In this document: one piece after another, positions 10,774-40,967 of the stretch
How the letters are laid out: each line of letters opens with the position of its first letter
Position numbering within the stretch: the first letter of the stretch is position 1
Assembly: GCA_025210295.1 (NCBI GenBank)
Contig: JAOASC010000031.1
Location: 44,350 to 108,349 of the forward strand
Direction: 5' to 3'
Source: Flavobacteriales bacterium
GTDB taxonomy: Bacteria > Bacteroidota > Bacteroidia > Flavobacteriales_D > Parvicellaceae
Length of the DNA stretch: 64,000 nt
Translations under genes and position numbers: made by a program
Notes under the pieces: model-generated
Told to the model about the DNA's origin: nothing
Databases searched by the model: none
What the model saw: only the letters and a program-made list of their open reading frames with translations

Positions 10774-11386
10774 ACATATCGTAATTGAAGGGAATATTGG
10801 GGCTGGAAAAACAACTTTAGCCAATTTCATCGCTAAAGAATTTGACAGTTCTTTGTTGTTAGAAGAATTTGAAGAAAATGATTTTTTGAAAGAGTTTTAT
10901 AATAATGAAGATTTTGTTCTACATGCTGAAGTACAATTCATATTAGACAGGAGCAAACAATTATTTCAATTTCACAAACAAAAACACCAAGCTATTGTAA
11001 CTGACTATATTCCCTCTAAAAGTTTGATTTTTTCCAAAATGAACTTATCGAAAAACGACTTTAACCTTGTAGAAAATTTAGTACAATCGCTTTTCAAGAC
11101 CTTACCTCAACCTGATATTATGCTTTTTTTAGAACGCCCCGTTCAACAGCTCAAAGAAAACATCTTAAAAAGAGGACGTGAGTATGAAACAAACATCTCT
11201 AATGCCTACTTACAAAAAGTAGAAGATGCCTATACCCACTTTTTAAAACAACAACAAGAATTTCCTGTTCTTTTAATTAATGCTGATGAAATTGACTTGT
11301 CTAACCCAACTATTTTAAAAGAAAAAATTGCTAAGCTTTTACAAGCCAATTTTGAAAACAGAGTAAAGAAAGTTAGCTTACTATAA
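10760..11386 (+). CDS. Deoxynucleoside kinase (dNK family)
   Basis: A P-loop ('IVIEGNIGAGKTTL') and an ERS-type segment ('LFLERPVQQLKENILKRGREYE') are present. Confidence 0.85.
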   Translation: MLNYKHIVIEGNIGAGKTTLANFIAKEFDSSLLLEEFEENDFLKEFYNNEDFVLHAEVQFILDRSKQLFQFHKQKHQAIVTDYIPSKSLIFSKMNLSKNDFNLVENLVQSLFKTLPQPDIMLFLERPVQQLKENILKRGREYETNISNAYLQKVEDAYTHFLKQQQEFPVLLINADEIDLSNPTILKEKIAKLLQANFENRVKKVSLL

Positions 11387-14434: not shown

Positions 14435-16369
14435 ATGAAGTTATTTTGTCTCATACTACTTGCAATATTAATCCCTACCTCTTACTTGGGGCAAAACTTA
14501 ATCCCTAAGCAAAAGAAAAAGAAGTGGGGGTTTGTTGACAAAAATGATGAGTGGGTAATCAAACCAAAATTTCATGAAGTCAAGAAATTTAGTGAGGGCT
14601 ATGCTTGTGTAAGAGTTAAAAACAAGTGGGGCTATATTGATCGCTATGGAAAAAAAATAACCCCACTCAAATATTCAGCAGCTATCCCTTTTGCAAATGG
14701 TTTAGCCGCAGTCAGATCTTCCGCTCCTCTTCCCGGCAATACAAGGGCCAACAACAATCAATACAAATGGGGCTATATTGATATTACGGGGACTATTGTA
14801 ATTCCTTTAAGCTTTAGATTTGCTCATTCATTCGACTCAAAAGGCAGAGCTTTAGTTGAATTGTTTAAATTAAAAAAAGGAGAAACTTTTTGGATTGATA
14901 AATCAGGGCAAGCAATATCACCTCCATTTATTGAAAAAATTAAAGTTGGTAAACATTATAAAATCATTAACCAACGAAATGGAAAAGAAAAAGTATACCG
15001 CTACATAAAAGAAACTGGAACACCGATTACTGAATGGTATTTAAATGACTTTGCCTTAACAGGTGATTTAATCAAAGTTTGGTTACCGTCTAATCCAGAA
15101 AATGACACCATTGAAACCAATGCTTTTAAGGGAAACAGTAAAAAGAAGTTATGCGCTTATATGGATCAAAACGGAACTATCTTGAGTGATTGGTATTCAG
15201 AAATTAAGTCGTTTAAGAATGGGTATGCTCCTGTGAGGCACCATCACCTTTATGGTTTTATTGATCGTTCGTTTAACTTAACTCAAAAACCTCTATATAG
15301 AGAAATTAGTTTAATTAACGACAGCACTTACAAAGCGCAAATTGAATATGGAAAATCGGTATTACTTAATATAAAAGGAGTAGAAAAAAGCCTCTACTGC
15401 CATGAGTTTGAACTATACGCTGATGATTTCTTCTTAGGGGTTCACCAATTAAAATCAAGCTATAGAAACGAAACGAAATATGCTGTTTTTTCGGCGTATG
15501 GAAAACAGATTACAGGATGGTACAATAAAGTTAACGATATACACAACAACATTATTCGAGTGGAAGATGATCGCCCTCAATACATTGATAATAAACTTAA
15601 ATACATTGCTAAATACAATTATGTGAGCCTCACTTCTGGAGAATTAATTTCTGACTGGAGACCAGCATCCCATATCAAATGGCAAAATAAGCCACCAAAA
15701 GATAGTCTGTTAAGCTACTTATTTATGACTAATCCTATCATTGAATTAGACCATCATTTCTTTGAAAAAATGTTTGTTAAGGAATTCGATCTCGATCACC
15801 GAGGCAAAAAAATCACATTTAGTGGAGGAGATTTCCATAACGGAATGGCATTGGTTGCGCTCACTACTGTTGAAAAAGAAACACAACATCACAAAATTAC
15901 CACTACCTCTAATTGTAGTAAATATGGTTATATAGATTGGAATGGTGATTTGATTATCCCATATAAGTATGAAGAAGCAGGAGCTTTTAGAGATGAATAT
16001 GCCGTTATTCGAAAAAATGGAAAATATGGAGCAATTAATAGTAAAGGGAAAAAAGTTATTCCTGAAAAATATAATCTATTGGGAGCTTATGGTAGTGGTT
16101 TATTTCCTTTTCTAGACAAAGAGGGAAAATGGGGCTATATTAACAGATCCAACAGAATTCAAATCAATCCAATATTTGATAATGCGCAGCCATTTTCTTA
16201 CGGATATGCCTCTGTAAAAAAAGGAAGATATTGGGGGTTGATTGATGTAATGGGTAAAGAAATTATGCCATTTAATTATCAAAAACCTATCGTAGTTATT
16301 TCTCCTAAAAAGGTAAAATACTTAGAGAGTGGAGTTGGGTATATTGAAAAAAACATTAATGAATTATAA
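14435..16369 (+). CDS. Secreted WG-repeat (KWG) protein
   Basis: A signal peptide is followed by more than 10 repeats of the 'KWGYIDxxGkxvIpxkY' type. Confidence 0.7.
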   Translation: MKLFCLILLAILIPTSYLGQNLIPKQKKKKWGFVDKNDEWVIKPKFHEVKKFSEGYACVRVKNKWGYIDRYGKKITPLKYSAAIPFANGLAAVRSSAPLPGNTRANNNQYKWGYIDITGTIVIPLSFRFAHSFDSKGRALVELFKLKKGETFWIDKSGQAISPPFIEKIKVGKHYKIINQRNGKEKVYRYIKETGTPITEWYLNDFALTGDLIKVWLPSNPENDTIETNAFKGNSKKKLCAYMDQNGTILSDWYSEIKSFKNGYAPVRHHHLYGFIDRSFNLTQKPLYREISLINDSTYKAQIEYGKSVLLNIKGVEKSLYCHEFELYADDFFLGVHQLKSSYRNETKYAVFSAYGKQITGWYNKVNDIHNNIIRVEDDRPQYIDNKLKYIAKYNYVSLTSGELISDWRPASHIKWQNKPPKDSLLSYLFMTNPIIELDHHFFEKMFVKEFDLDHRGKKITFSGGDFHNGMALVALTTVEKETQHHKITTTSNCSKYGYIDWNGDLIIPYKYEEAGAFRDEYAVIRKNGKYGAINSKGKKVIPEKYNLLGAYGSGLFPFLDKEGKWGYINRSNRIQINPIFDNAQPFSYGYASVKKGRYWGLIDVMGKEIMPFNYQKPIVVISPKKVKYLESGVGYIEKNINEL

Positions 16370-16373
16370 CGCA

Positions 16374-16412
16374 TAAAAAAAGCAGTATACAAGGTATACT
16401 GCTTTTTTATTT
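16374..16412. terminator. Bidirectional rho-independent terminator between the WG-repeat gene and nrdA(i)
   Basis: A perfect 10-bp stem (AGCAGTATAC / GTATACTGCT) has an A-run upstream and 'TTTTTTATTTT' downstream. Confidence 0.6.
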
Positions 16413-16427
16413 TCTTGTTGCTATTGG

Positions 16428-18188
16428 TTATCCCTCACAGCTTAGACACTCTTTCTTTTGTTTAAATTTTTGAGCGGCATTCATACTGTGTTGGTAATAC
16501 ATTGATTTTAACCCTAATTTCCAAGCAGTCACATAAATACTATTTACTTCTTTAATTGGCATATCAGGATGAACCATAATGTTAACTGATTGTCCTTGAT
16601 CAATAAACTCTTGTCTACTAGAAGCTTGATATACGATCACTTTTTGATCTATTTCAGAATACGTTTTAAAAACATTTCTCTCATGCTCAGACAAGAAAGT
16701 TAAATGACTAACAGACCCATCGTTATCACGAATACTCTTCCATACATCATCTGTATTTCTTCCTTTTTCTTCAAGAAGTGTTACCAAAAATGGATTCTTA
16801 ATTGTTGTCTTTATTTTAGCAATATCTTTCACATAATTATTCGACCAAATTGGTTCAATTCCTTGTGAAACTTGCCCTAAAATAAAAGCAGAAGATGTTG
16901 TAGGAGCAATTGCATTCAATGTTGCGTTACGTCTTCCATAACCTTTCATCACCTTTGGCTCTCCATAAAGTTTTGCCAATTCTTCAGATGCCTTATAAGA
17001 CTTCTCTTTGATTGTTTTAAAAATCTCATTGTTTAAATAGTAAGCCTCTTGATCATCAAAAGCGATCATTTTAGATTGCAATAAAGAGTGCCATCCTAAT
17101 GCTCCTAAACCTAATGCTCTATTGTCTTTAGCAAAGTTATAGGCTTTTTCCATAAACCTGAATGTTAACTGATCATCCTTATCACTAGAATCTCTGAAAA
17201 CCTCTAACTTTTGGATAAACTCTTCCATTACCGCATCCAAAAAGTAAGTCAATGTTTCTACTGCATCTGTATCTTTCCATTTATCGTAATGCAATAAGTT
17301 AATTGATGAAAGACAGCAAACAAAAGACCATTCCTCATTAGTTGGTAACATGATTTCAGTACATAAGTTACTTCCGTAAATCTCTAAATTTTTATCTTTA
17401 TAGACATCAACAGTTCCATTATTAGCATGATCTTTAAAGAAGATATATGGATATCCTATCTCTCCTCTTCTTTGTAAAACTTTTGCCCAGATATTTCTCT
17501 TCTCAGCATCTCCATCAATCATTTCTTGCATCCACTGATCACCTACAGTAACACCATGTGTCAACTCTTGAATAGGGTTTCCTTCTGTTCCGATTTCTAA
17601 GAACTCTTCGATATCCTCATGATCGATCGGTAAATACGGAGCAAAACGTCCTCTTCTTACAGAACCTTGACTAACTACATCAACCATCTTTTCAAACAGT
17701 TGCATAATATGAACTGATCCAGAAGAAACACCATTATTTTTTACTTCAGCTCCTCTTGGTCTCAATTTTCCAAAGTAACCAGATGTTCCTCCTCCTAATT
17801 TAGACATCATTCCTACTTCTGACTGACTATAAAGGATATCTCCCATATCATCAGCAACATGAGATCCAAAACAACTAATTGGTAACCCTCTCTTTTTTCC
17901 AAAGTTAGACCAAACTGGAGATGCTAAAGAATAATACCCCTCTTCCATGTAATGGTAAAATTTCTTCGCAAAACCATCTATCTTCAAAATGTTTTCTGCA
18001 TTTTGAGCGATCTCCATGATTCTTTCTTCAGGTGAAACCCCTTCAGTTAAATAACCAGAACTCAAAAACTTACGGCTGTTCTCTGTCAACCAAGCTATAT
18101 TCTTTAATTCGCTATTATTACTTATACCTTCTTTTCTTGCCTGAACTAATTGCTCATAGCTAGATGTCTTCGTCGTTTCGTTGTTCAT
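16428..18188 (-). CDS. nrdA: Ribonucleoside-diphosphate reductase alpha subunit, short form lacking the ATP-cone (NrdAi-like)
   Basis: The catalytic motif 'GSNLCTEIMLP' and a C-terminal 'CLSCEG' are present. At 586 aa there is no N-terminal ATP-cone. The gene lies immediately downstream of a beta-subunit gene that carries one. Confidence 0.85.
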   Translation of the reverse strand: MNNETTKTSSYEQLVQARKEGISNNSELKNIAWLTENSRKFLSSGYLTEGVSPEERIMEIAQNAENILKIDGFAKKFYHYMEEGYYSLASPVWSNFGKKRGLPISCFGSHVADDMGDILYSQSEVGMMSKLGGGTSGYFGKLRPRGAEVKNNGVSSGSVHIMQLFEKMVDVVSQGSVRRGRFAPYLPIDHEDIEEFLEIGTEGNPIQELTHGVTVGDQWMQEMIDGDAEKRNIWAKVLQRRGEIGYPYIFFKDHANNGTVDVYKDKNLEIYGSNLCTEIMLPTNEEWSFVCCLSSINLLHYDKWKDTDAVETLTYFLDAVMEEFIQKLEVFRDSSDKDDQLTFRFMEKAYNFAKDNRALGLGALGWHSLLQSKMIAFDDQEAYYLNNEIFKTIKEKSYKASEELAKLYGEPKVMKGYGRRNATLNAIAPTTSSAFILGQVSQGIEPIWSNNYVKDIAKIKTTIKNPFLVTLLEEKGRNTDDVWKSIRDNDGSVSHLTFLSEHERNVFKTYSEIDQKVIVYQASSRQEFIDQGQSVNIMVHPDMPIKEVNSIYVTAWKLGLKSMYYQHSMNAAQKFKQKKECLSCEG

Positions 18189-18191
18189 ATA

Positions 18192-19466
18192 TTAAAATAA
18201 ATCGTCTCCAGTTATACTTTTTGTTCTTTTACTATAGTTAATTGACCTTTTCACAAAAAAGTCCCCATGTTTAGTTGCAATGATTTCGTCATCAAACCAC
18301 TCTGTCTCTGCAACAAGGTCTTTATCTACCTCAAATATTTTTTCAATTCCTATACTCTCTAATGAATTATTAAACCTGTTTTTAATAAACTCATTAATCA
18401 CATTTTTAGGTAAGAAATCTAACTCTCCTTTCTCAAAAATCCAATCCACAATCTTACTTTCAGATTCAAAAGCTTCTTTACACATCTCTTGAACCATTTG
18501 GCTGTGTTGCTCATCAAACCAAGATGGATTTTCCCTCTTTATAATATTGATGATATCAATTCCAAAGTCTCCATGTATTTGTTCCTCTTTTGATGTTGCT
18601 TCTACAACATTTGAAATCCCTTTAAATAAGTTTCTATGCTTATTAAAAGACATGATTATCAAAAACTGCGAGAATAAAGAAACATGTTCGATAAACAATG
18701 AGAATAGCAAAATAGATTCAGCATATTCCTTGTTATCATCACTCTTAGCGTTTTTCAATGCACTTTCTAAGTACTGTACCCGTTTCATAATAACGGGCTT
18801 TTTCTTTAAGTTTTTAAACTCATTATTCAACCCTAATATCTCTAACAAGTGAGAATAAGCGTCCTGATGTCTAACTTCACTTTCTGCAAAAGTTGCTCCC
18901 ACTGAACCAATTTCAGGCTTTGGCATTTTCTGGTAAATATCTCCCCAGAATGTTTTAACCGCTACTTCTATTTGTGAGATTGCCAACATGGTGTTTTTCA
19001 ACGCATTTTTTTCAGTCTCTGTTAATGCTGTTTTATAATCTTGAATATCACTAGTAAAGTTAAACTCTGTATGAATCCAGTAAGAATGTCTTATTGCATC
19101 AACATACTCATTCAGTTCTGGGTATTCGTAAGGTTTAAGGTTAATACGCTTCTCAAAAATATTAGACTGACGGTTTCTTGCCTGTTCTACACGATATAGA
19201 ATATAAGCCTTAGCAACATTATGAAATGGGCTATCCATTAACTTATCCTCAACAATATCCTGTATTTGTTCTACCGTTGGTGTATACGAGTTATCGCTTA
19301 ATTTTCTTTCAAGCAATACGCCTAATACAATTTGAGCAATCCCCTCGGCATCTTCTCTTGACCCCTCTCCGACAGATTGCATCGCTTTATCGATAGCTTC
19401 TGTTATATTGGCAATTGAGAATGGTACAATCTCGTTATCTCTCTTTATTATCTGTGTAATTTGCAT
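18192..19466 (-). CDS. nrdB: Ribonucleotide reductase beta subunit (ferritin-like R2) with an N-terminal ATP-cone fusion (NrdBi-like)
   Basis: The first 95 aa or so ('IIKRDNEIVPFSIANITEAIDKA...') match the ATP-cone pattern. The remainder is R2-like, with metal ligands of the 'FAESEVRHQDAY' and 'LFSLFIEHVSLFSQF' type. Confidence 0.8.
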   Translation of the reverse strand: MQITQIIKRDNEIVPFSIANITEAIDKAMQSVGEGSREDAEGIAQIVLGVLLERKLSDNSYTPTVEQIQDIVEDKLMDSPFHNVAKAYILYRVEQARNRQSNIFEKRINLKPYEYPELNEYVDAIRHSYWIHTEFNFTSDIQDYKTALTETEKNALKNTMLAISQIEVAVKTFWGDIYQKMPKPEIGSVGATFAESEVRHQDAYSHLLEILGLNNEFKNLKKKPVIMKRVQYLESALKNAKSDDNKEYAESILLFSLFIEHVSLFSQFLIIMSFNKHRNLFKGISNVVEATSKEEQIHGDFGIDIINIIKRENPSWFDEQHSQMVQEMCKEAFESESKIVDWIFEKGELDFLPKNVINEFIKNRFNNSLESIGIEKIFEVDKDLVAETEWFDDEIIATKHGDFFVKRSINYSKRTKSITGDDLF

Positions 19467-20331
19467 AGTAGGTAGATACTAATATTATATAAAATCCTTG
19501 TGAAAAATCGTGAATACAAATTAAGAGAATTTCAACCTAAAAGTAAAGGGTGATTCATAAAAGATATGAGAATGTTTTTAACAATTTGTTGGTTAGAAAA
19601 AAGAACATTTAACAAAGCCTTAAAAAATATTTCACACGGTCTTAACAAGTGATAAAATAGCTAAAAGCGTCCTTGATCAAGTATCAATGTTAACAAAAGG
19701 CACAAACAAAACAAAAAACAACACAACGCATTGATAGACAGTATTTTAAACCAGCAAAAAACATACTATTAACAAAGAAAAAATTACTTCAACATTGCTG
19801 TTAATAACTAATTATTGGTATAACTTTTTTTTCTCTTGTCATATTCCTTATTTTTTACTAAACAGTCCTAATATAAAAGCCTAAAAAACGATTACATCAC
19901 TTCCTCTAAACATTCATTTTAAGTATTTTATTTTTAGGTATTAAAAACAACAAAATATTATTTTATTTTTTAGTTACAATTCAAAAAAATCATCTTAAAA
20001 AAACTTGATTTTCGGAAAAAAAATTACTGGTTTAATTTTTATCTACATTTTGGTGTGAAAAAACAAAATAGCCAGCGATAACAATCATCATTTTTCTTTC
20101 TTAAATTTATTAACGCAAAGATAATCAACTCCTTAACAAGAACGCTCTAAACAACCTGTCTTAGAAGAAAAGAAAGCTGAACACTCTTGTTAATAACATA
20201 AAAATAATGTGAACTCTTTTGCCTTGACTTATGGAAGTTTTTTTTGAATTTTTGTAGCCCTTAAATGACGAAAAACACCCCATCTATTAAACGAGACAGA
20301 ATTAATAAACAAATATTAAAGACGATAAAAT
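19467..20331. promoter_or_regulatory. 865-bp AT-rich divergent control region between the two RNR operons
   Basis: No ORF is present. The region is A-rich with TTAACAAG-like repeats (19641, 20133), an inverted copy TCTTGTTAA near 20185, and TTGTTAATAAC motifs. Its function was not determined. Confidence 0.3.
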
Positions 20332-21381
20332 ATGGACAATCCAACAACAAAGCCAACGGAAAAATTAGAGAACATTAATCTAGATAACATTTTACCAGAA
20401 AACACTGTTATTGAAGAACCCATATTAAAAGATAATCCTGAACGATTTGTTTTATTCCCAATCCAACACGATGACATCTGGCAAATGTACAAAACACAAC
20501 AAGCCATGATTTGGACAGCTGAAGAGCTAGATTTAGCTTCTGATTTGGTTGATTGGAATGAAAAACTCAACGATAATGAACGTTATTTTATCAAGCATGT
20601 TCTTGCGTTCTTTGCTGCATCTGATGGTATTGTAAATGAAAATTTAGCAGAAAACTTTTTAAGTGAAGTACAATATACTGAGGCTAAATTTTTCTACGGT
20701 TTCCAAGTTATGATGGAAAATGTTCACTCAGAGACGTATTCGTTATTAATCGACACTTACATCAAGGATGCTAAGGAAAAAGATTATCTATTCAACGCAA
20801 TTGAGACTTTCCCTCCTGTAAAAACAAAAGCTGAGTGGGCATTAAGATGGATTGATAATGGATCTTTTGCAGAGCGATTAATTGCCTTTGCTGCTGTTGA
20901 GGGAATCTTCTTTTCAGGGTCATTTTGCGCCATATTCTGGTTAAAGAAAAGAGGATTAATGCCAGGATTAACTTTCTCAAATGAGTTAATTTCAAGAGAT
21001 GAAGGTTTACATTGTGATTTCGCTTGTTTATTATACAATAACCACTTAAAAAATCAATTACCAAAAGCACAAGTAAAAGAAATTATTACTTCTGCAGTAG
21101 AAATTGAAAAAGAGTTTGTTACAGAATCATTACCTGTTCGTTTAATAGGAATGAATGCAGACTTAATGAACCAATATATAGAATTTGTTGCGGACCGTTT
21201 ATTAGTAGAATTGGAATGTGAAAAAGTATACAATGCTACTAATCCTTTTGACTTTATGGATATGATTAACCTACAAGGAAAAACTAATTTCTTTGAGAAA
21301 AGAGTGGGTGAGTACCAAAAAGCAGGAGTTAAAAATGGAGCAGGAGAAAACAATGCATTTAGTTTAGATGCAGACTTTTAA
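20332..21381 (+). CDS. nrdB: Ribonucleoside-diphosphate reductase beta subunit, canonical class Ia, eukaryote-like
   Basis: A ferritin-like R2 fold is indicated ('[13 protein letters not shown]', '[10 protein letters not shown]', '[17 protein letters not shown]', C-terminal tail 'FSLDADF'). Confidence 0.9.
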
Positions 21382-21409
21382 TTATTTATTTTTTTAAACC
21401 CAGAACTAG

Positions 21410-23767
21410 ATGTACGTATTAAAAAGAGATGGACGAAAAGAAGTTGTAAAATTTGATAAAATTACAGCTCGAATAAAAAAGATGTGCTACGGCCTTAACC
21501 CATTAGTAGTTCCTGAAAAAGTAGCGATGAGAGTCATTGAAGGCCTGTATGATGGTGTTTCGACAAGTGAACTAGACAATTTAGCTGCCGAAGTCGCTGC
21601 AACGAATACAATTACGCATCCTGATTACGCATTGCTTGCATCGCGAATTGCAGTATCTAACTTGCATAAAAACACCCATAAATCATTCTCTGCAACCATA
21701 GATGACTTATACAATTATATAGACCCTAAAACTGGAGAAAACGCTTCTTTAATTGCTGAAGATGTCTATCAAATTATTCAAGAAAACAAAGAAATTTTAG
21801 ACTCCACAATTATTTACGACAGAGACTTTAGATATGACTTCTTTGGGTTTAAAACATTAGAACGCTCTTACTTACTAAAAATAAATGGTAAAGTTGTTGA
21901 ACGTCCTCAACAAATGCTAATGCGTGTTTCTGTAGGGATTCACAAAAATGATATTGATGCGGTTATAGAAACCTACAACTACTTAAGTGAAGGATGGTTT
22001 ACGCATGCAACGCCAACATTATTTAATTCTGGGACACCCAAACCTCAAATGTCTTCTTGCTTTTTATTAAAAACAAAAGATGACAGTATTGAAGGTATTT
22101 ATGACACACTAAAACAAACTGCTCAAATTTCTCAATCTGCAGGTGGAATTGGTATTTCAATTCACGATATTAGAGCAACAGGCTCTTACATCAAAGGAAC
22201 GAATGGAACTTCCAATGGAATTGTCCCAATGTTAAGAGTATTTAACGATACAGCAAGATATGTAGATCAAGGAGGCGGAAAAAGAAAAGGTTCTTTTGCA
22301 GTATACCTTGAGCCTTGGCATGCTGATGTTTTTGACTTTCTAGATTTAAAGAAAAACACAGGTAAAGAAGAAGCTAGAGCAAGAGATCTATTTTATGCAC
22401 TATGGATCCCAGACTTATTCATGAAACGTGTTGAAGCAAACGAAGACTGGACCTTAATGTGCCCACATGAATGTCCTGGACTTTCTGATGTTCATAGTGA
22501 AGAATTTGAAGCGCTATACACCAAATACGAACAAGAAGGAAAAGGTCGTAAAACAATCAAAGCACAAGATCTATGGTTTAAGATTTGTGAATCGCAAATC
22601 GAAACAGGAACACCTTATATGCTCTATAAGGACGCTGCCAACTCAAAATCCAATCAGAAAAACCTTGGTACGATTAAGTCCTCAAACCTATGTACTGAAA
22701 TTATTGAATATACTGACAAAGATGAAGTTGCTGTATGTAACTTAGCTTCGATAGCTTTACCAAAGTTTGTAAAAGACGGTACATTTGATTTTGAAAAATT
22801 GTTTGAAGTTTCTTATAGAGCGGCTAAAAATCTTGATAAAGTTATCGATGAAAATTTCTACCCTGTACCTGAGGCGAGAAACTCAAACATGCGTCACAGA
22901 CCTATTGGACTAGGTGTCCAAGGATTAGCTGATGCCTTTATCTTAATGCGTTTTCCTTTTGACTCTGCAGAAGCTAAACAATTGAACAAAGACATTTTTG
23001 AGACCATTTATTACGCAGCCGTAACTGCTTCAAAAGATTTAGCAAAAGAAAATGGTCCTTATCAAACATTTAAAGGCTCTCCTATTTCTGAAGGTATTTT
23101 CCAGTTCGACATGTGGGGAGTAACCCCTTCTAATAGATGGGAATGGGATATTTTAAGAGAAGAAGTAAAAGAGCATGGTGTTAGAAACTCTTTATTATTA
23201 GCACCTATGCCTACAGCTTCAACAGCTCAAATCTTAGGGAATAATGAATGTTTTGAACCTTACACTTCGAATGTATATACTAGACGAGTACTTTCTGGAG
23301 AGTTTATTATCGTAAACAAACATTTATTAAGAGACTTAGTAAAACTGGGATTATGGAACGATAGTTTGAAGAATAAATTAATGGCTGCTAATGGCTCTGT
23401 TCAAAACATTGACGAAATTCCTCAAAACATAAAAGATTTATATAAAACAACTTGGGAAATTTCTCAAAAAGTATTGATCGACATGGCTGCTGATAGAGGA
23501 GCGTACATTGACCAATCACAATCGTTAAACATCTTTATGGAAAATGCTAATTTTGCTAAATTAACATCAATGCACTTCTATGGTTGGAAAGCAGGTTTAA
23601 AAACTGGTATGTACTACTTAAGAACAAAAGCTGCAACTGATGCAATTAAATTTACACTAGATAAGTCAGCTATAGAGGCTCCAAAAGCAAAAACAGAAGA
23701 GGAAAGACAAGCTGAAATCGCTTGTTCATTAGATGATCCAGATAACTGCGAAATGTGTAGTGGATGA
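21410..23767 (+). CDS. nrdA: Ribonucleoside-diphosphate reductase alpha subunit, class Ia, with an N-terminal ATP-cone
   Basis: The ATP-cone is present ('[20 protein letters not shown]'). The active site 'SSNLCTEI' and a C-terminal redox Cys pair ('CEMCSG') are present. Confidence 0.9.
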
Positions 23768-23794
23768 TCAAACAAACTTAACCAATCAACACAA

Positions 23795-23828
23795 GGCATA
23801 GTATTTAAATACTGTGCCTTTTTTTTGC
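23795..23828 (+). terminator. Rho-independent terminator after nrdA
   Basis: The stem GGCATAGTATTT/AAATACTGTGCC has one mismatch and is followed by T8. The track ORF 23814 begins with a GTG inside this hairpin and is therefore spurious at its 5' end. Confidence 0.6.
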
Positions 23829-23861
23829 TTGCATGGCACAATTCTTGAATTGTCTCTCCTC

Positions 23862-25370
23862 ATGGAAAAAACTTTACTTTTAAACATCATTTTACTCATT
23901 AGTTTTAGCGGTTTTACTCAAAACAACCGTTTTCTAAATTCAATAGATAATCTAAAGTTTAGCCCTAAGGAAGTTGTCGTTAGAAATACGAATACAACCT
24001 TAGTGAAACTCAATTATCAACTAAAAATGTATGAAGGAAAACCAAAGAGTCTTAACCTTTCAAAAATGTTGAACTTCCATGCAAATGGCGCTGCACAGGA
24101 GGTTACTGCTTCTAGAAAACAACTCTTAATCAAAGTAAAACAGAACACTAAAATCAAAGACACCATTATTCTAAAGTATGCTTTTAAAAAAAGAGATGAT
24201 ATTCAATTTACAGATACCATTATCACTTTGAATTTTGATAAAATCCGTCAAAAAACATTAAATGAAATTGTAGTGGTAGAACCTATAATCAATGAGAACA
24301 AAGTTTCGATAATTAACTACCAAAAAATAGATTTTCTGTTAACTTTTAAAAATGGAAAACAAAGTTATCTATCTGAATATAGCGACATTTTATACCGTTC
24401 AGACTTCGATATCAGAGCAGATGGTCCTATAGAATACGCTTCTGGTTCTGTAAAAGGCAAATACCATGCTTTTATTGAAGGAGATGGTTACATCACGGTT
24501 TCTCTAAAAAACAACCCTGCGATTCAAACTACTAAAGCAGTAAAAATTAATCATAACGTGAAATACGTTTTAGACTTTGATAAAAGCTATATAGGTAGAA
24601 GAGGTAGGAGTGGCGATGATGGAACTGATGGACGAAATGGAAACACCTATAAAGAAGTCGTGAGCGAAAACTACAATATCTACAACAACATTTCTCATAA
24701 TTCTATCGATGGGGAAAGTGGGAGAACAGGAGAAAATGGCAGAAGAGGTGCCCAAGGAGCTAATGCCTCTGAAGTCAATGTTTTTGTCAACATCGTGACT
24801 AACACAGAGGACCAACAAGCCTTACAAGTGAAAACCCAAAAAGGGAGCAGTTATTACACTAGATACCTTCCATTAAACAGCGACTTCTCAAGGCTTAAAA
24901 TATACAACAGAGGTGGTGATGGAGGTCGCGGTGGTCATGGTGGTGACGGCGGCGATGGTGGTGACGGAAAAGCATTTACAATCATTGTAGAAAAAGAGAA
25001 GGAAGATCCTAATGACCGAAATAAAACAGTTGTAGAAAAGTCTTTTTACTATTACGAAGGAAATGGTGGTAATGGTGGCCACGGTGGTAATGGAGGTAAC
25101 GGCGGAGACGGTGGCGATGGAGGTAATGTAAATATCTATTATGACCAAGCTTCTTCTGCTTATCTAGACCGCATTACAATTATTAACACTGGAGGCGATG
25201 GAGGTAGTCCTGGTTACGCAGGTGATGGAGGTGATGGAGGATGTAGAAAACGTCTATATGGCGAGGAAGTGATGAATAAAGGTAGAGATGGAAGAGATGG
25301 TGAAGATGGGGAGAGAGGTTATTCAGGAAGTAGAGGAAGAAAAGGAAATGTTAATTATATTCTACAATAG
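23862..25370 (+). CDS. Secreted protein with short collagen-like Gly-X-Y and Gly-Gly-X triplet runs
   Basis: A signal peptide ('MEKTLLLNIILLISFSGFTQ') is present. The C-terminal half contains 'GRRGRSGDDGTDGRNGN', 'GESGRTGENGRRGAQGAN', 'GGDGGRGGHGGDGGDGGDG', 'GGNGGNGGHGGNGGNGGDGGDGG' and 'GRDGRDGEDGERGYSGSRGRKGN'. There is no T9SS CTD. Confidence 0.6.
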   Translation: MEKTLLLNIILLISFSGFTQNNRFLNSIDNLKFSPKEVVVRNTNTTLVKLNYQLKMYEGKPKSLNLSKMLNFHANGAAQEVTASRKQLLIKVKQNTKIKDTIILKYAFKKRDDIQFTDTIITLNFDKIRQKTLNEIVVVEPIINENKVSIINYQKIDFLLTFKNGKQSYLSEYSDILYRSDFDIRADGPIEYASGSVKGKYHAFIEGDGYITVSLKNNPAIQTTKAVKINHNVKYVLDFDKSYIGRRGRSGDDGTDGRNGNTYKEVVSENYNIYNNISHNSIDGESGRTGENGRRGAQGANASEVNVFVNIVTNTEDQQALQVKTQKGSSYYTRYLPLNSDFSRLKIYNRGGDGGRGGHGGDGGDGGDGKAFTIIVEKEKEDPNDRNKTVVEKSFYYYEGNGGNGGHGGNGGNGGDGGDGGNVNIYYDQASSAYLDRITIINTGGDGGSPGYAGDGGDGGCRKRLYGEEVMNKGRDGRDGEDGERGYSGSRGRKGNVNYILQ

Positions 25371-39000: not shown

Positions 39001-40967
39001 TGTGCATAAATATCAGAAATAGCGTCGATAATCTTAGTTGTTTGCGTAGCATCCTCAATTTTTAAATTACTAACAATCTCTATCAACAATTCCAACTCAG
39101 CAGAAACCGCTAAAACTTTATTTTCTAATTCATTAGCATCTACAACTTTCTCTAATTGACCAATTGTTGTTTTTAAACCGTCTACCTTAACTAAATAGGG
39201 AGCAAGCGATTTCTCGTCTAACAAAAACTGAACACAACGCTGTGATATATCTTCTTGATGTTGGGCTATTTGCTGATCTAATTCCTCTACTAAATCAACT
39301 TCAACATAACGTAATTCTTTTAATTGTATAATACTTCCTCTAACGCCTCTTATCTCTCCCAAAACCTCAACAAAATGATCAATTAAATCGAAGTTTTTAA
39401 TTTTAATCGCACGCAATAAGTTTGCTACAATTTCTTGTGTTCTTTGTGTTTCTTCTAGTGTATGTTGTTTTACTTTTACAACTTTATCAAACTCATCAAT
39501 AGCTGAGGAAGCTGATTCTTTAATCGCTACTAAAGGCTCATGAATATCGGCTACTGTTATGCTATCAATCCAATGATAAGTATCCAAGACATCGTTGGCT
39601 CCCTTTACAATATCTAGGTATAAATTGGCGTAAGAATCTTCTTTGTAAATCAAACGAATCACCTCATTACATTCTGACATTGCTTTAACAATATCTTTAT
39701 TTCCTATCTTTTGTAATTCAGAATCGTTTTTTTCTGCTGGAACGAAACTATGATCTAAAAATGGTGTTTGCCAAATTTGAACCGCGTGATGCTTTTTTTG
39801 TTCATCATCATTCTTAAAGAAACACATTTCTCCATTGTCAAAAATAGAATAACCGTGGCAAATAATAGGGGTTTCTACTTTCTGTTCAATAATGTTGTAA
39901 CTTAACAAGATATATACTCCTGACACTTCATTGTAAAACACATAAAGAAAATCCTCACCATTGGGTGATGCAATTCTTTTTTCGAAAATCATATTTTCTA
40001 ATTGATTTTCGAACAGTTTATATTCCCCTGATTGCAGGTAGTAACCTTTAGAAAAAATCAGTCCATGGTCGTCTGGTAGTAACACTCCTGATTTTTCTAA
40101 TGCATCTATCCGTGTAACCGTTTTGATTTTATTGTTAAAAACCAAATAGCGGAACTCTTTTTCTTGATAGGGTTGTATTTTTAAAACAACTAGATTTCCA
40201 ACTACAGCGTAGTAAACTAAAGCATCGTCTAAGGTTTGGTCTTTATTCGCTACTGGCTCTGTATAAATGCCTTTTCCTGAAGCGGTATTGTCTTCAATTT
40301 TTATTGTTAAATCCCCTCCTACTGTTTCAACAAAAACAAGATCTTCGATAGAAATATGTGGATGTTCTCCGCTTACATGCTGGTCTCTTGTTGTTTTGAT
40401 CCATTGAAACTCATGTTGTTCAGGATATGCAAGTTCGTATTCAGAACGGTTATCAACATAAATTAATTGTTGGCCTTTAACATTCCATTTAAATGCCTTA
40501 ACATCGTTTACAGAATTTCCTACTTGAAAGACAAAATACAGGAAAGGACCTTGTTCTACAAACTTTAAAAACTCTGCATTTTTATAATACTTATAAAGAT
40601 TATGAAAATCTGTTTGAAACGCTTCGTCGTTAATTAAATCATACGCAATTGGAGTAAAGTTATGATCGGCATACGCATACAGACTAAAAACATCACTGAT
40701 CTTAATTTCAGTTCGAAGGCCTATATGTACATTGTACCCAAAAATAAAGGCGTCTCCAACTGGAACCATATCACGAGGTAAACAATTGTTTTCTGTAGTA
40801 ATTCGCTCAGTAGAGACTAATGCTGTTTCTATGGCTCCAAAAACATTTTTACGTTCAACATTTAACGCGTGTAATTGCTCTTGTAATTGCTTTCCATGTT
40901 TAGATAAACGATCCCTAATGATTTCGTAAGTACCGCCCTCCAATTGTATTTCTTCGTTACGCTCCAT
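36084..40967 (-). CDS. Giant (1627 aa) protein with an N-terminal beta-rich region, a long central coiled-coil or helical region and a C-terminal MoxR/AAA_5-like AAA+ ATPase domain
   Basis: Walker A 'LISPPGYGKTTL' (around nt 37117-37151), Walker B 'VMIYLDDIQH' and a sensor-1 region 'VAIVMAGNPYTESGDKFQIPDMLSNRADIY' resemble the MoxR/dynein-related AAA_5 clade. The central 400 aa or so are heptad-rich. Confidence 0.7.
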   Translation of the reverse strand: MERNEEIQLEGGTYEIIRDRLSKHGKQLQEQLHALNVERKNVFGAIETALVSTERITTENNCLPRDMVPVGDAFIFGYNVHIGLRTEIKISDVFSLYAYADHNFTPIAYDLINDEAFQTDFHNLYKYYKNAEFLKFVEQGPFLYFVFQVGNSVNDVKAFKWNVKGQQLIYVDNRSEYELAYPEQHEFQWIKTTRDQHVSGEHPHISIEDLVFVETVGGDLTIKIEDNTASGKGIYTEPVANKDQTLDDALVYYAVVGNLVVLKIQPYQEKEFRYLVFNNKIKTVTRIDALEKSGVLLPDDHGLIFSKGYYLQSGEYKLFENQLENMIFEKRIASPNGEDFLYVFYNEVSGVYILLSYNIIEQKVETPIICHGYSIFDNGEMCFFKNDDEQKKHHAVQIWQTPFLDHSFVPAEKNDSELQKIGNKDIVKAMSECNEVIRLIYKEDSYANLYLDIVKGANDVLDTYHWIDSITVADIHEPLVAIKESASSAIDEFDKVVKVKQHTLEETQRTQEIVANLLRAIKIKNFDLIDHFVEVLGEIRGVRGSIIQLKELRYVEVDLVEELDQQIAQHQEDISQRCVQFLLDEKSLAPYLVKVDGLKTTIGQLEKVVDANELENKVLAVSAELELLIEIVSNLKIEDATQTTKIIDAISDIYAQFNQINAALKKKRKVLLGREGKAEFNSQIKLISQSVVNFLDISETPEKCDEYLTKLMVQLEELEGKFSEFDEFITLVGEKREEVYNAFESRKIALIESRNKRATTLQQSAERILKGIKNRVANFKTPVEINGYFASDIMVGKIRDIIAQLIELKDAVKADDVQSQFKTVKEDALRQLKDKTELFVDGKDIIQMGKHQFSVNTQPLDLTIVLKNGEMCFHLTGTNYFEPVTNPEFLATESVWDQAYISENKQVYRAEYLAYQILQKLAIKEPVSETEFLMLEEKEQLAIVQQLMASKYEEGYAKGIHDVDAHLILKTALTIAKHADLLVYSSYERACAKFFWEKYIDVPQKEALNARLKAAGVVIEVFPETNEFKQLKTTLVQLMESFVMETNLYTAANITDAANYLFEEVCRGDQFILSQEALELYDQFNLYLTKVNAKKIFNQSLNSVDASAVSQILLMQNWLNAYLEATPKNMHLKAYVEEVAISVISSDQDKPKVIKVKTGQKLTGFQGNHTVVDADYDFDYNRFYAKMYDFKTVSVPKFEQYQTLKKEIIHAFKDELRLHEFKAKVMTSFVRNKLIDEVYFPLIGDNLAKQMGAAGENKRTDLMGMLLLISPPGYGKTTLMEYIANRLGLVFMKINGPTIGHQVTSLDPAEAPNASAKEEIEKLNLAFEMGDNVMIYLDDIQHCNPEFLQKFISLCDAQRKIEGVYKGKSKTYDLRGKKVAIVMAGNPYTESGDKFQIPDMLSNRADIYNLGDITGGKAAVFNLSYIENSLTSNPVLQRLVAKSFKDVYAFLKVVETGSQEGIAFEGNHSGQEIKEYTALLEKVIQVRDTLTKVNAQYIASAGQEDKYRTEPPFKLQGSYRDMNKIVEKLVPIMNDKELQTVILSHYENESQTLTTGAEANMLKFKELQGMLSPEEAQRWQVIKEVYQKSQKMSGLGEDNQTAQVLLQMEEITKGLGVIANVIGKASS

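Follow-up and report, generated by a model that had tools for sequence, protein, structure and literature searches.

Class Id and eukaryote-like class Ia ribonucleotide reductase operons head to head in a narrow Flavobacteriales clade: a cassette gained or lost beside a constant neighbour, and an upstream motif common to both

Why would one bacterium keep two complete aerobic class I ribonucleotide reductases (RNRs) back to back, and how might labour be divided between them? The question is raised by a 64,000-nucleotide stretch from a marine Flavobacteriales bacterium of the Parvicellaceae (contig JAOASC010000031.1, positions 44,350 to 108,349), herein termed the window, in which two RNR operons diverge from an AT-rich spacer (19467-20331) that sets their start codons 865 bp apart. 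An initial annotation, made from the sequence without database searches, had read the minus-strand operon as carrying its regulatory ATP-cone on the radical-generating subunit NrdB, as in Leeuwenhoekiella-type class Id enzymes, and the plus-strand operon as a conventional eukaryote-like class Ia pair. The coordinates and lengths that it gave for the four open reading frames (ORFs) agree exactly with the ORF list, and the four proteins are identical to MCT4581720-23 in NCBI, which come from a metagenome-assembled genome, lie on a contig of 577 kb and bear routine annotation. The reading that we favour, and hold with good confidence, is that of a class Id cassette subject to gain and loss beside a resident class Ia enzyme, each controlled by deoxyadenosine triphosphate (dATP) through a different subunit. 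The genes and domains concerned are the following.

16428..18188, minus strand: nrdAi, class Id catalytic subunit, 586 residues, without an ATP-cone (Pfam, NCBIfam TIGR02510 and PDB matches)
18192..19466, minus strand: nrdBi, class Id radical-generating subunit, 424 residues (phmmer against 5OLK)
19182..19454, minus strand: ATP-cone domain of NrdBi, residues 5-95 (Pfam PF03477)
20332..21381, plus strand: nrdBe, eukaryote-like class Ia small subunit, 349 residues (mouse R2, 1H0N)
21410..23767, plus strand: nrdAe, eukaryote-like class Ia large subunit, 785 residues (human RRM1, 3HNC)
21410-21670, plus strand: ATP-cone of NrdAe, residues 1-87 (Pfam)

The unusual domain distribution of the minus-strand pair withstands scrutiny. 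Pfam places PF03477 at residues 5-95 of NrdBi (79 bits, E 4.1e-22, cutoff 25.8) and Ribonuc_red_sm at residues 107-381, which bears out the proposed N-terminal cone, and it finds Ribonuc_red_lgN and lgC in the 586-residue NrdAi with no PF03477 match. Truncation of NrdAi by a frameshift was checked and is excluded: the protein matches NCBIfam TIGR02510 ('NrdE-prime') in full length (profile positions 9-560 of 560, 761 bits, cutoff 602), and its length recurs in about 70 further species. Moreover, nrdBi is the first gene of the operon and nrdAi starts 3 bp past its stop codon, an interval too short for a lost cone. The cysteines of NrdAi comprise active-site Cys106, Cys276 (in NLCTEI) and Cys291/292, together with a C-terminal CxxC (C581 and C584).

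Structural comparisons place both proteins in class Id. A phmmer search aligns NrdBi without gaps to 5OLK, the Leeuwenhoekiella blandensis protein, over 423 residues including the cone (E 1.3e-213, 713 bits), with identities of 74% overall, 81% in the core and 52% in the cone. The top PDB matches are all class Id beta subunits (5OLK at 713 bits, 6SF4 at 613 bits, 8DQ3 and 6CWO), and the next RNR class scores below 100 bits. NrdAi is closest to the class Id alpha subunit of Actinobacillus ureae (6DQX, E 1.6e-221), followed by that of Flavobacterium johnsoniae (6DQW, E 3e-179), the two chains being 574 and 585 residues long; both belong to the same subclass as NrdAi, as do the F. johnsoniae beta structures (6CWO/6CWP/6CWQ, E 1.8e-103), although these start at the core (query residues ~97-102) and lack the ATP-cone that NrdBi possesses. 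Compared with the L. blandensis system (5OLK, 6SF4/6SF5; eLife 2018, JBIC 2019, Front Mol Biosci 2021), the window pair has the same domain order, metal ligands and cone interface, and the same gene order, with a cone-less nrdA immediately downstream of nrdB; the two differ in that L. blandensis pairs its class Id enzyme with a class II RNR, whereas that of the window faces a eukaryote-like class Ia operon transcribed in the opposite direction. Judged by these alignments, the minus-strand pair is the direct orthologue of L. blandensis NrdBi/NrdAi, as the initial annotation had supposed.

Residue-level comparison extends this correspondence to the metal site and the regulatory interface. All six metal ligands are kept with respect to L. 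blandensis (E167, E197, H200, E260, E295 and H298, the first being Glu and not Asp), as are K171 and W174 (the helix-B Lys and Trp), Y204 and its hydrogen-bonding partner T291; these are the identical counterparts of Glu170/200/263/298, His203/301, Lys174, Trp177, Tyr207 and Thr294, the metal-site residues described for that organism (PMC5794259; PMC6754362). The initial annotation had further singled out the presence or absence of the radical-site Tyr as informative. The Tyr is indeed present (Y204), but it does not decide the cofactor type, since the Tyr of class Id enzymes is not the radical carrier: the hydroxyl of its non-radical L. blandensis counterpart lies ~6 Å from Glu170 in 5OLK (PMC5794259), and that Tyr is 7.6 Å from Mn1 in the Mn-loaded structure (PMC6754362). 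In the cone, the KRD motif is kept, and the beta4 cone-cone interface of L. blandensis (D73, D76, M80, K89, I92, I93 and R95; PMC5794259) is matched by D70, E73/D74, M77, K86, I89, L90 and R92, with a single, conservative change from Ile to Leu (L90).

Cofactor and oligomeric mechanism are thereby inferred to be those published for L. blandensis, where dATP induces beta4 (PMC5794259), the class Id alpha4beta4 complex is inactive by steric block (PMC8350387) and the oxidant is Mn2(IV,III) formed from superoxide or H2O2 (PMC6754362). NrdBi would accordingly generate the same oxidant from either source without a stable tyrosyl radical; ATP bound to its cone would favour active beta2, and dATP would yield a beta4 held together solely by cone-cone contacts, which would in turn trap alpha2 in inactive alpha4beta4. 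The class Id Grx-ATP-cone-NrdB of Facklamia ignava likewise places the cone on a radical-generating Mn2(IV,III) subunit, and differs in bearing a glutaredoxin domain, which Pfam does not find in NrdBi.

The plus-strand operon, whose genes are separated by 28 bp, is equally recognizable. NrdAe, for which Pfam finds an ATP-cone at residues 1-87 together with lgN and lgC, matches human RRM1 (3HNC) end to end (residues 1-784, 1269 bits), and NrdBe matches mouse R2 (1H0N; E 7.5e-150, 502 bits). NrdBe bears the canonical ligands D98, E129, H132, E190, E224 and H227 as well as the radical Tyr136; NrdAe bears catalytic C217, C428 and C443 and a C-terminal CEMC (C780/C783). Close relatives number in the thousands in marine Flavobacteriales metagenomes; those at 80-90% identity are plentiful, the few named ones being assigned to Parvicella, Crocinitomicaceae or Flavobacteriales. 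A eukaryote-to-Bacteroidetes transfer of class Ia has been described for marine Bacteroidetes (Lundin et al., 2010; PMC3019208), and by its sequence relationships the plus-strand pair is this eukaryote-derived enzyme; in comparison with the published examples it is typical, nothing material differing, and only its neighbour is unusual. The initial annotation was thus right about this pair as well, including the cone of its NrdA. The enzyme would rely on an Fe2-tyrosyl radical and on the cone of its alpha subunit.

The two cones of the locus show no BLASTP similarity to one another, and the cone of NrdBi was therefore not taken from the neighbouring NrdAe. In the earlier description the cone was 'moved from NrdA to NrdB'; this is true of the enzyme family (eLife 2018) and fails for these neighbours. 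The C-terminal tails of the beta subunits, ...NYSKRTKSITGDDLF in NrdBi and ...FSLDADF in NrdBe, also differ; given what is established about R1-R2 recognition, each beta should bind its own alpha, such that NrdBi should pair with NrdAi and NrdBe with NrdAe. Both kinds of enzyme have already been described. The novelty is modest and consists in a rare, lineage-restricted juxtaposition, the gain or loss of a class Id operon beside a constant class Ia operon, and an upstream motif common to the two, new as far as could be checked.

The rarity of the juxtaposition emerges from two surveys. The first, restricted to one genome per species, yielded at least 541 confirmed relatives of NrdBi, the best 80 loci of which were examined. 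All 80 relatives cover residues 1-424 and the combination of a 424-residue NrdB with a ~586-residue NrdA recurs in 80 of 80 loci, so that cone-bearing NrdBi is common in Flavobacteriales, occurring in full length in at least 80 species-representative genomes. A eukaryote-like pair adjoins nrdBi in only one of the 70 loci that are informative by virtue of at least 2.5 kb of upstream sequence, and this locus (L001) belongs to the same lineage as the window, at protein identities of 96-99%. The second survey covered 80 metagenome loci of nrdBe, 49 of them with enough upstream flank, and none of the 49 has nrdBi alongside. The arrangement reappears in the cluster of NrdBe relatives at 90% identity or above: L164, L165 and L166 share the divergent layout, and L163 and L081 have the same flanks with nrdAi and nrdBi absent. 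All occurrences of the adjacency fall within a single narrow clade of Flavobacteriales.

The flank order common to these relatives (a GEVED/type IX secretion system gene, a WG-repeat gene, then nrdBe-nrdAe and a SprT-like gene) allows the edges of the extra segment to be drawn. Around the RNR region, the genes encode cargo proteins of type IX secretion, as is typical of Bacteroidota. Homology to L081 and L163, which lack the cassette, ends at ~16384 and ~16349, respectively, and the class Id cassette runs from ~16385 to ~19620 (~3.2 kb), holding a terminator hairpin, nrdAi, nrdBi and a promoter region of ~150 bp, and nothing else. The hairpin marks the left edge:

16376..16408, strand not assigned: bidirectional terminator candidate, a perfect hairpin with a 15-bp stem flanked by an A-run and a T-run (terminator scan)

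It lies between the convergent WG-repeat gene (stop at 16369) and nrdAi (stop at 16428) and is absent from cassette-less L081. With its own promoter region and terminator, set between the WG-repeat gene and the class Ia regulatory region, the cassette would be self-contained.

In a neighbour-joining tree built from NrdBe plus residues 1-210 of NrdAe, the window pairs with L001 (bootstrap 100%), and cassette-less L163 falls with cassette-bearing L164 and L165, as ((L164,L165),L163), at bootstrap values of 99-100%. Between the window and L001 the four genes differ at synonymous sites by a dS of 0.84-1.35, with ratios of nonsynonymous to synonymous substitution (dN/dS) of 0.007-0.013; all four RNR genes are under strong purifying selection. 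We read class Ia as the clade's resident enzyme, to which class Id adds a maintained yet dispensable accessory.

Within the spacer, footprinting across lineages resolves the following elements.

19564..19588, minus strand: conserved promoter-proximal block of nrdBi with Box A (invariant in four lineages at near-saturated synonymous divergence)
19644..19812, plus strand: tentative degenerate upstream copy of the nrdBe regulatory module (four-lineage alignment, repeat, duplication in L163/L165)
20039..20062, plus strand: inverted pair of DnaA-box-like 9-mers, TTATCTACA-N6-TGTGAAAAA, upstream of nrdBe
20185..20258, plus strand: nrdBe promoter block, 74 bp, 79-90% identical in L081, L163, L164 and L165, the flanking spacer not being alignable

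Box A of nrdBi, TTGTTAAAAAC (19574-19584), lies in sense orientation 108 bp upstream of the ATG. Among the nrdBi loci, the 400 bp before the nrdBi starts contain 51 sense copies of this 11-mer, and both strands of the remaining 1.1 Mb contain 6. A looser form, TGTTRAWAAC, is found at 66/79 nrdBi loci and 36/76 nrdBe loci, and very few of its copies are antisense; its density upstream of nrdBi and nrdBe exceeds that elsewhere by a factor of 130-175. Its copies tend to come in phased arrays: TGTGRA follows TGTTRAWAAC by 19-21 bp (start to start) for 21/79 nrdBi and 19/46 nrdBe instances, and consecutive sense TGTKRA motifs upstream of nrdBi are spaced by 11 bp (41), 12 bp (16), 21 bp (21) or 20 bp (4), a pattern of phasing that the antisense control does not show. 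The same grammar is legible in the nrdBe block, which is also conserved in L082: Box A (TGTTAATAAC, 20188-20197) is succeeded at 20 bp, start to start, by TGTGAAC (20208-20214), then by TTGACT (20224-20229) and AATTTTTG (20247-20254), the last two of which we take, on the published Bacteroidetes promoter consensus, to be a -33 element and a Bacteroidota-type -7 element.

Upstream of this block, the second 9-mer of the inverted pair is replaced in relatives by TGTGAATAA, TGTGTATAA or the perfect DnaA box TGTGGATAA, which L163 and L081 carry at the homologous position, and TTATCTACAT within the pair is invariant in four lineages. The whole nrdBe module (DnaA-like pair, Box A and promoter) is tandemly duplicated in L163 (6881-8000) and L165 (2597-3540), as two near-complete copies in the former and a second promoter block in the latter. 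The putative degenerate copy in the window comprises a block TAACAAGTGATAAAATAGCTA (19644-19663), a decayed DnaA-like pair and a Box A of the form TGTTAATAAC (19803-19812). Two further candidates were set aside. Five minus-strand TTGTTAA copies (19578-19775) had been considered as an nrdBi operator array; footprinting retains only the copy at 19578, the other four being window-specific or part of the degenerate plus-strand nrdBe module. An exact 11-mer at 40132 lies inside an ORF of 1627 residues and was taken as chance.

The TGTTRAWAAC motif is apparently RNR-specific and common to both operon types in Flavobacteriales. As for what might read it, the RNR-upstream 9-mers resemble the DnaA box (TGTGNAWAA) and differ at a conserved G; TGTGNAWAA itself is enriched 7- to 9-fold upstream of both operon types, and the best DnaA-box match in the window, TTATCTACA at 20039 (8/9 to TTATCCACA), does not exceed shuffled sequences. 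The 11-bp same-orientation phasing is reminiscent of low-affinity DnaA arrays at oriC. In Escherichia coli, DnaA controls nrdAB through boxes upstream of the promoter (PMC8203912), and the RNR promoters considered here are likewise preceded by candidate sites, 9-mers related to TGTGNAWAA in same-orientation arrays phased at 11 or 21 bp; the dominant TGTTRAWAAC deviates from the DnaA consensus at the conserved G. DnaA is thus the leading candidate regulator on motif resemblance, with some other factor as the alternative.

NrdR boxes offer a second comparison, being likewise an RNR-specific cis element common to different RNR classes, but they consist of a pair of 16-bp palindromes with a 15-16 bp spacer, and the present element is not so built. 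Allowing up to 3 mismatches, a search of 19467-20331 with a single NrdR-box consensus and no profile found none; over the whole window the NrdR-box count is below the shuffle mean. Scans of the spacer for Fur, PerR and MntR sites gave best scores no higher than shuffles, with E. coli and Bacillus subtilis consensus sequences from which the Bacteroidota versions may differ, and a sigma-70 promoter scan returned fewer hits than shuffles, which is uninformative, as expected for Bacteroidota. Across the whole window, no tRNA and no Rfam family was found at gathering thresholds, and hence no riboswitch in the 865-bp spacer. Taken together, it is conceivable, although we put it forward tentatively and at less than even odds, that one previously undescribed cis module governs the class Id and class Ia RNR operons of Flavobacteriales: same-strand arrays of TGTKRAWAA(C), phased at 11/21 bp upstream of a Bacteroidota-type promoter, would here play the part of NrdR boxes and be read by DnaA (as a low-affinity DnaA-ATP array) or by another regulator, the class Id cassette plugging into the same circuit.

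Several observations weigh against the view of a class Id cassette, gained and lost beside a resident class Ia enzyme, with both controlled by dATP. Gain once followed by loss in L163, and two gains at the same spot, are equally parsimonious; the 1.1-kb gap of L163, itself a single metagenome contig, holds no coding relics of the cassette. The motif is common to both operons and no Fur, PerR or MntR consensus accompanies it, so that nothing favours condition-specific expression. At 52% identity, the cone of NrdBi could differ from that of L. blandensis in nucleotide affinities or in the type of oligomer formed. Finally, no further RNR catalytic subunit was found within the window, which covers 64 kb of the 577-kb contig, and a class II or class III RNR may lie elsewhere in the genome.

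The likeliest of the alternatives, which we nevertheless deem improbable, sees in the class Id operon a recent acquisition, a functionally redundant passenger without a specialised role that is now being lost. Its absence from L163, which is nested among cassette-bearing lineages, and from L081 fits such a course, as does its possession of the same upstream motif as the class Ia operon. Against it stand a dN/dS of 0.013 over a divergence with dS above 1, the retention of the cassette in at least 3 distinct lineages and a divergence of its proteins in step with those of its neighbour (89-91% identity for the class Id proteins, 91-94% for the class Ia proteins). We consider it decidedly improbable that the ATP-cone of NrdBi has degenerated and lost its regulatory role: although the cone has drifted further from L. 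blandensis than the core (52% against 81% identity), it still scores 79 bits against the Pfam ATP-cone and keeps the KRD motif and the interface residues of helices alpha3 and alpha4, and nrdBi as a whole, cone included, has a dN/dS of ~0.013 between the window and L001, a figure that does not stand for the cone alone. Delivery of the cassette by a phage or another mobile element, which its presence or absence at a precise site and the known occurrence of RNR genes on plasmids and prophages (PMC3019208) might suggest, is highly improbable, given that no integrase, transposase, tRNA or flanking repeat lies at the cassette edges, that the inserted segment carries nothing beyond the two nrd genes, their promoter and a terminator, that its GC content matches the surroundings and that its proteins are most closely related to products of chromosomal genes in Flavobacteriales. 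The notion that the short NrdA or the cone-bearing NrdB arose by misassembly or frameshift, with a cone misjoined or lost, is refuted by the identical architecture in all 80 best loci, the ungapped match to 5OLK, the full-length match to TIGR02510 and the exact proteins in NCBI, and no point was found in its favour.

How, then, would the resident class Ia enzyme and the class Id cassette share the work? The initial annotation had raised metal availability and oxidative stress as possible grounds for a division of labour. The presence of the same motif on both operons, together with the lack of a metal or peroxide consensus, points to a shared rather than a differential transcriptional input. 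It is plausible, on comparison with the characterised enzymes, that labour is split by cofactor chemistry (Fe/O2 versus Mn/superoxide) and not by transcriptional control, with dATP predicted to switch off both enzymes, class Id via the beta cone and class Ia via the alpha cone. The most economical view would be a common, replication-linked transcriptional input with specialisation through the supply of metal and oxidant. The authors of the L. blandensis study note that every species possessing a cone-bearing NrdB has another RNR as well (PMC5794259); a second RNR is therefore to be expected, and only its identity and position are particular here.

Side observations on the surrounding genes are of interest in their own right. 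The class Ia operon is followed by its own terminator candidate:

23793..23820, plus strand: class Ia operon terminator candidate, a hairpin then a T-run after nrdAe (terminator scan)

Directly after nrdAe lies an ORF of 518 residues (23814-25370 of the window, plus strand) with no Pfam match and with Gly-rich GGDGG/GNGG repeats. Its GTG start overlaps the nrdAe terminator hairpin, such that an internal Met, in 'MEKTLLL...', is probably the true start. The window and L001 both have the ORF (88% identity), and L081, L164 and L165 lack it at this position, which indicates a second recent indel. Two genes away from the RNR region in relatives is a gene of the deoxynucleoside kinase or thymidylate-kinase fold (1297-1932 of L163, 1-123 of L164), the DNA of which aligns to 11000-11309 of the window (gene at ~10.7-11.3 kb); genes for salvage and for de novo synthesis of deoxynucleoside triphosphates are thus loosely clustered.

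Among the 80 class Id loci, the operon in Flavobacteriaceae recurrently neighbours DUF3109 (PF11307; 38 loci), MarC (35), a short Pyr_redox_2 protein (31), a dCMP deaminase (18) and an HD-domain, dGTPase-like phosphohydrolase (14). None of these five occurs in the window, and no DNA-binding protein that might be a regulator conserved beside nrdBi is found among the recurrent neighbours of the 80 loci. A DUF3109 gene also lies just upstream of nrdBe in L082 (8870-9451), and it is possible that DUF3109 or the short oxidoreductase is linked to the redox supply of RNR.

In summary, the enzymes themselves add nothing new to RNR biology, the mechanism of an ATP-cone on NrdB having been published in 2018, and the locus offers instead a worked example in which the NrdB cone and the cone of the neighbouring NrdA are unrelated copies of one domain. 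A sharply defined motif on both operons provides a handle on the control of RNR transcription where no NrdR-type site was seen. Lastly, close lineages differ only by a Mn/superoxide-dependent class Id cassette beside a constant Fe-dependent class Ia operon, and this natural contrast makes it testable why a bacterium should keep two aerobic RNRs, including in Fe-poor surface seawater.

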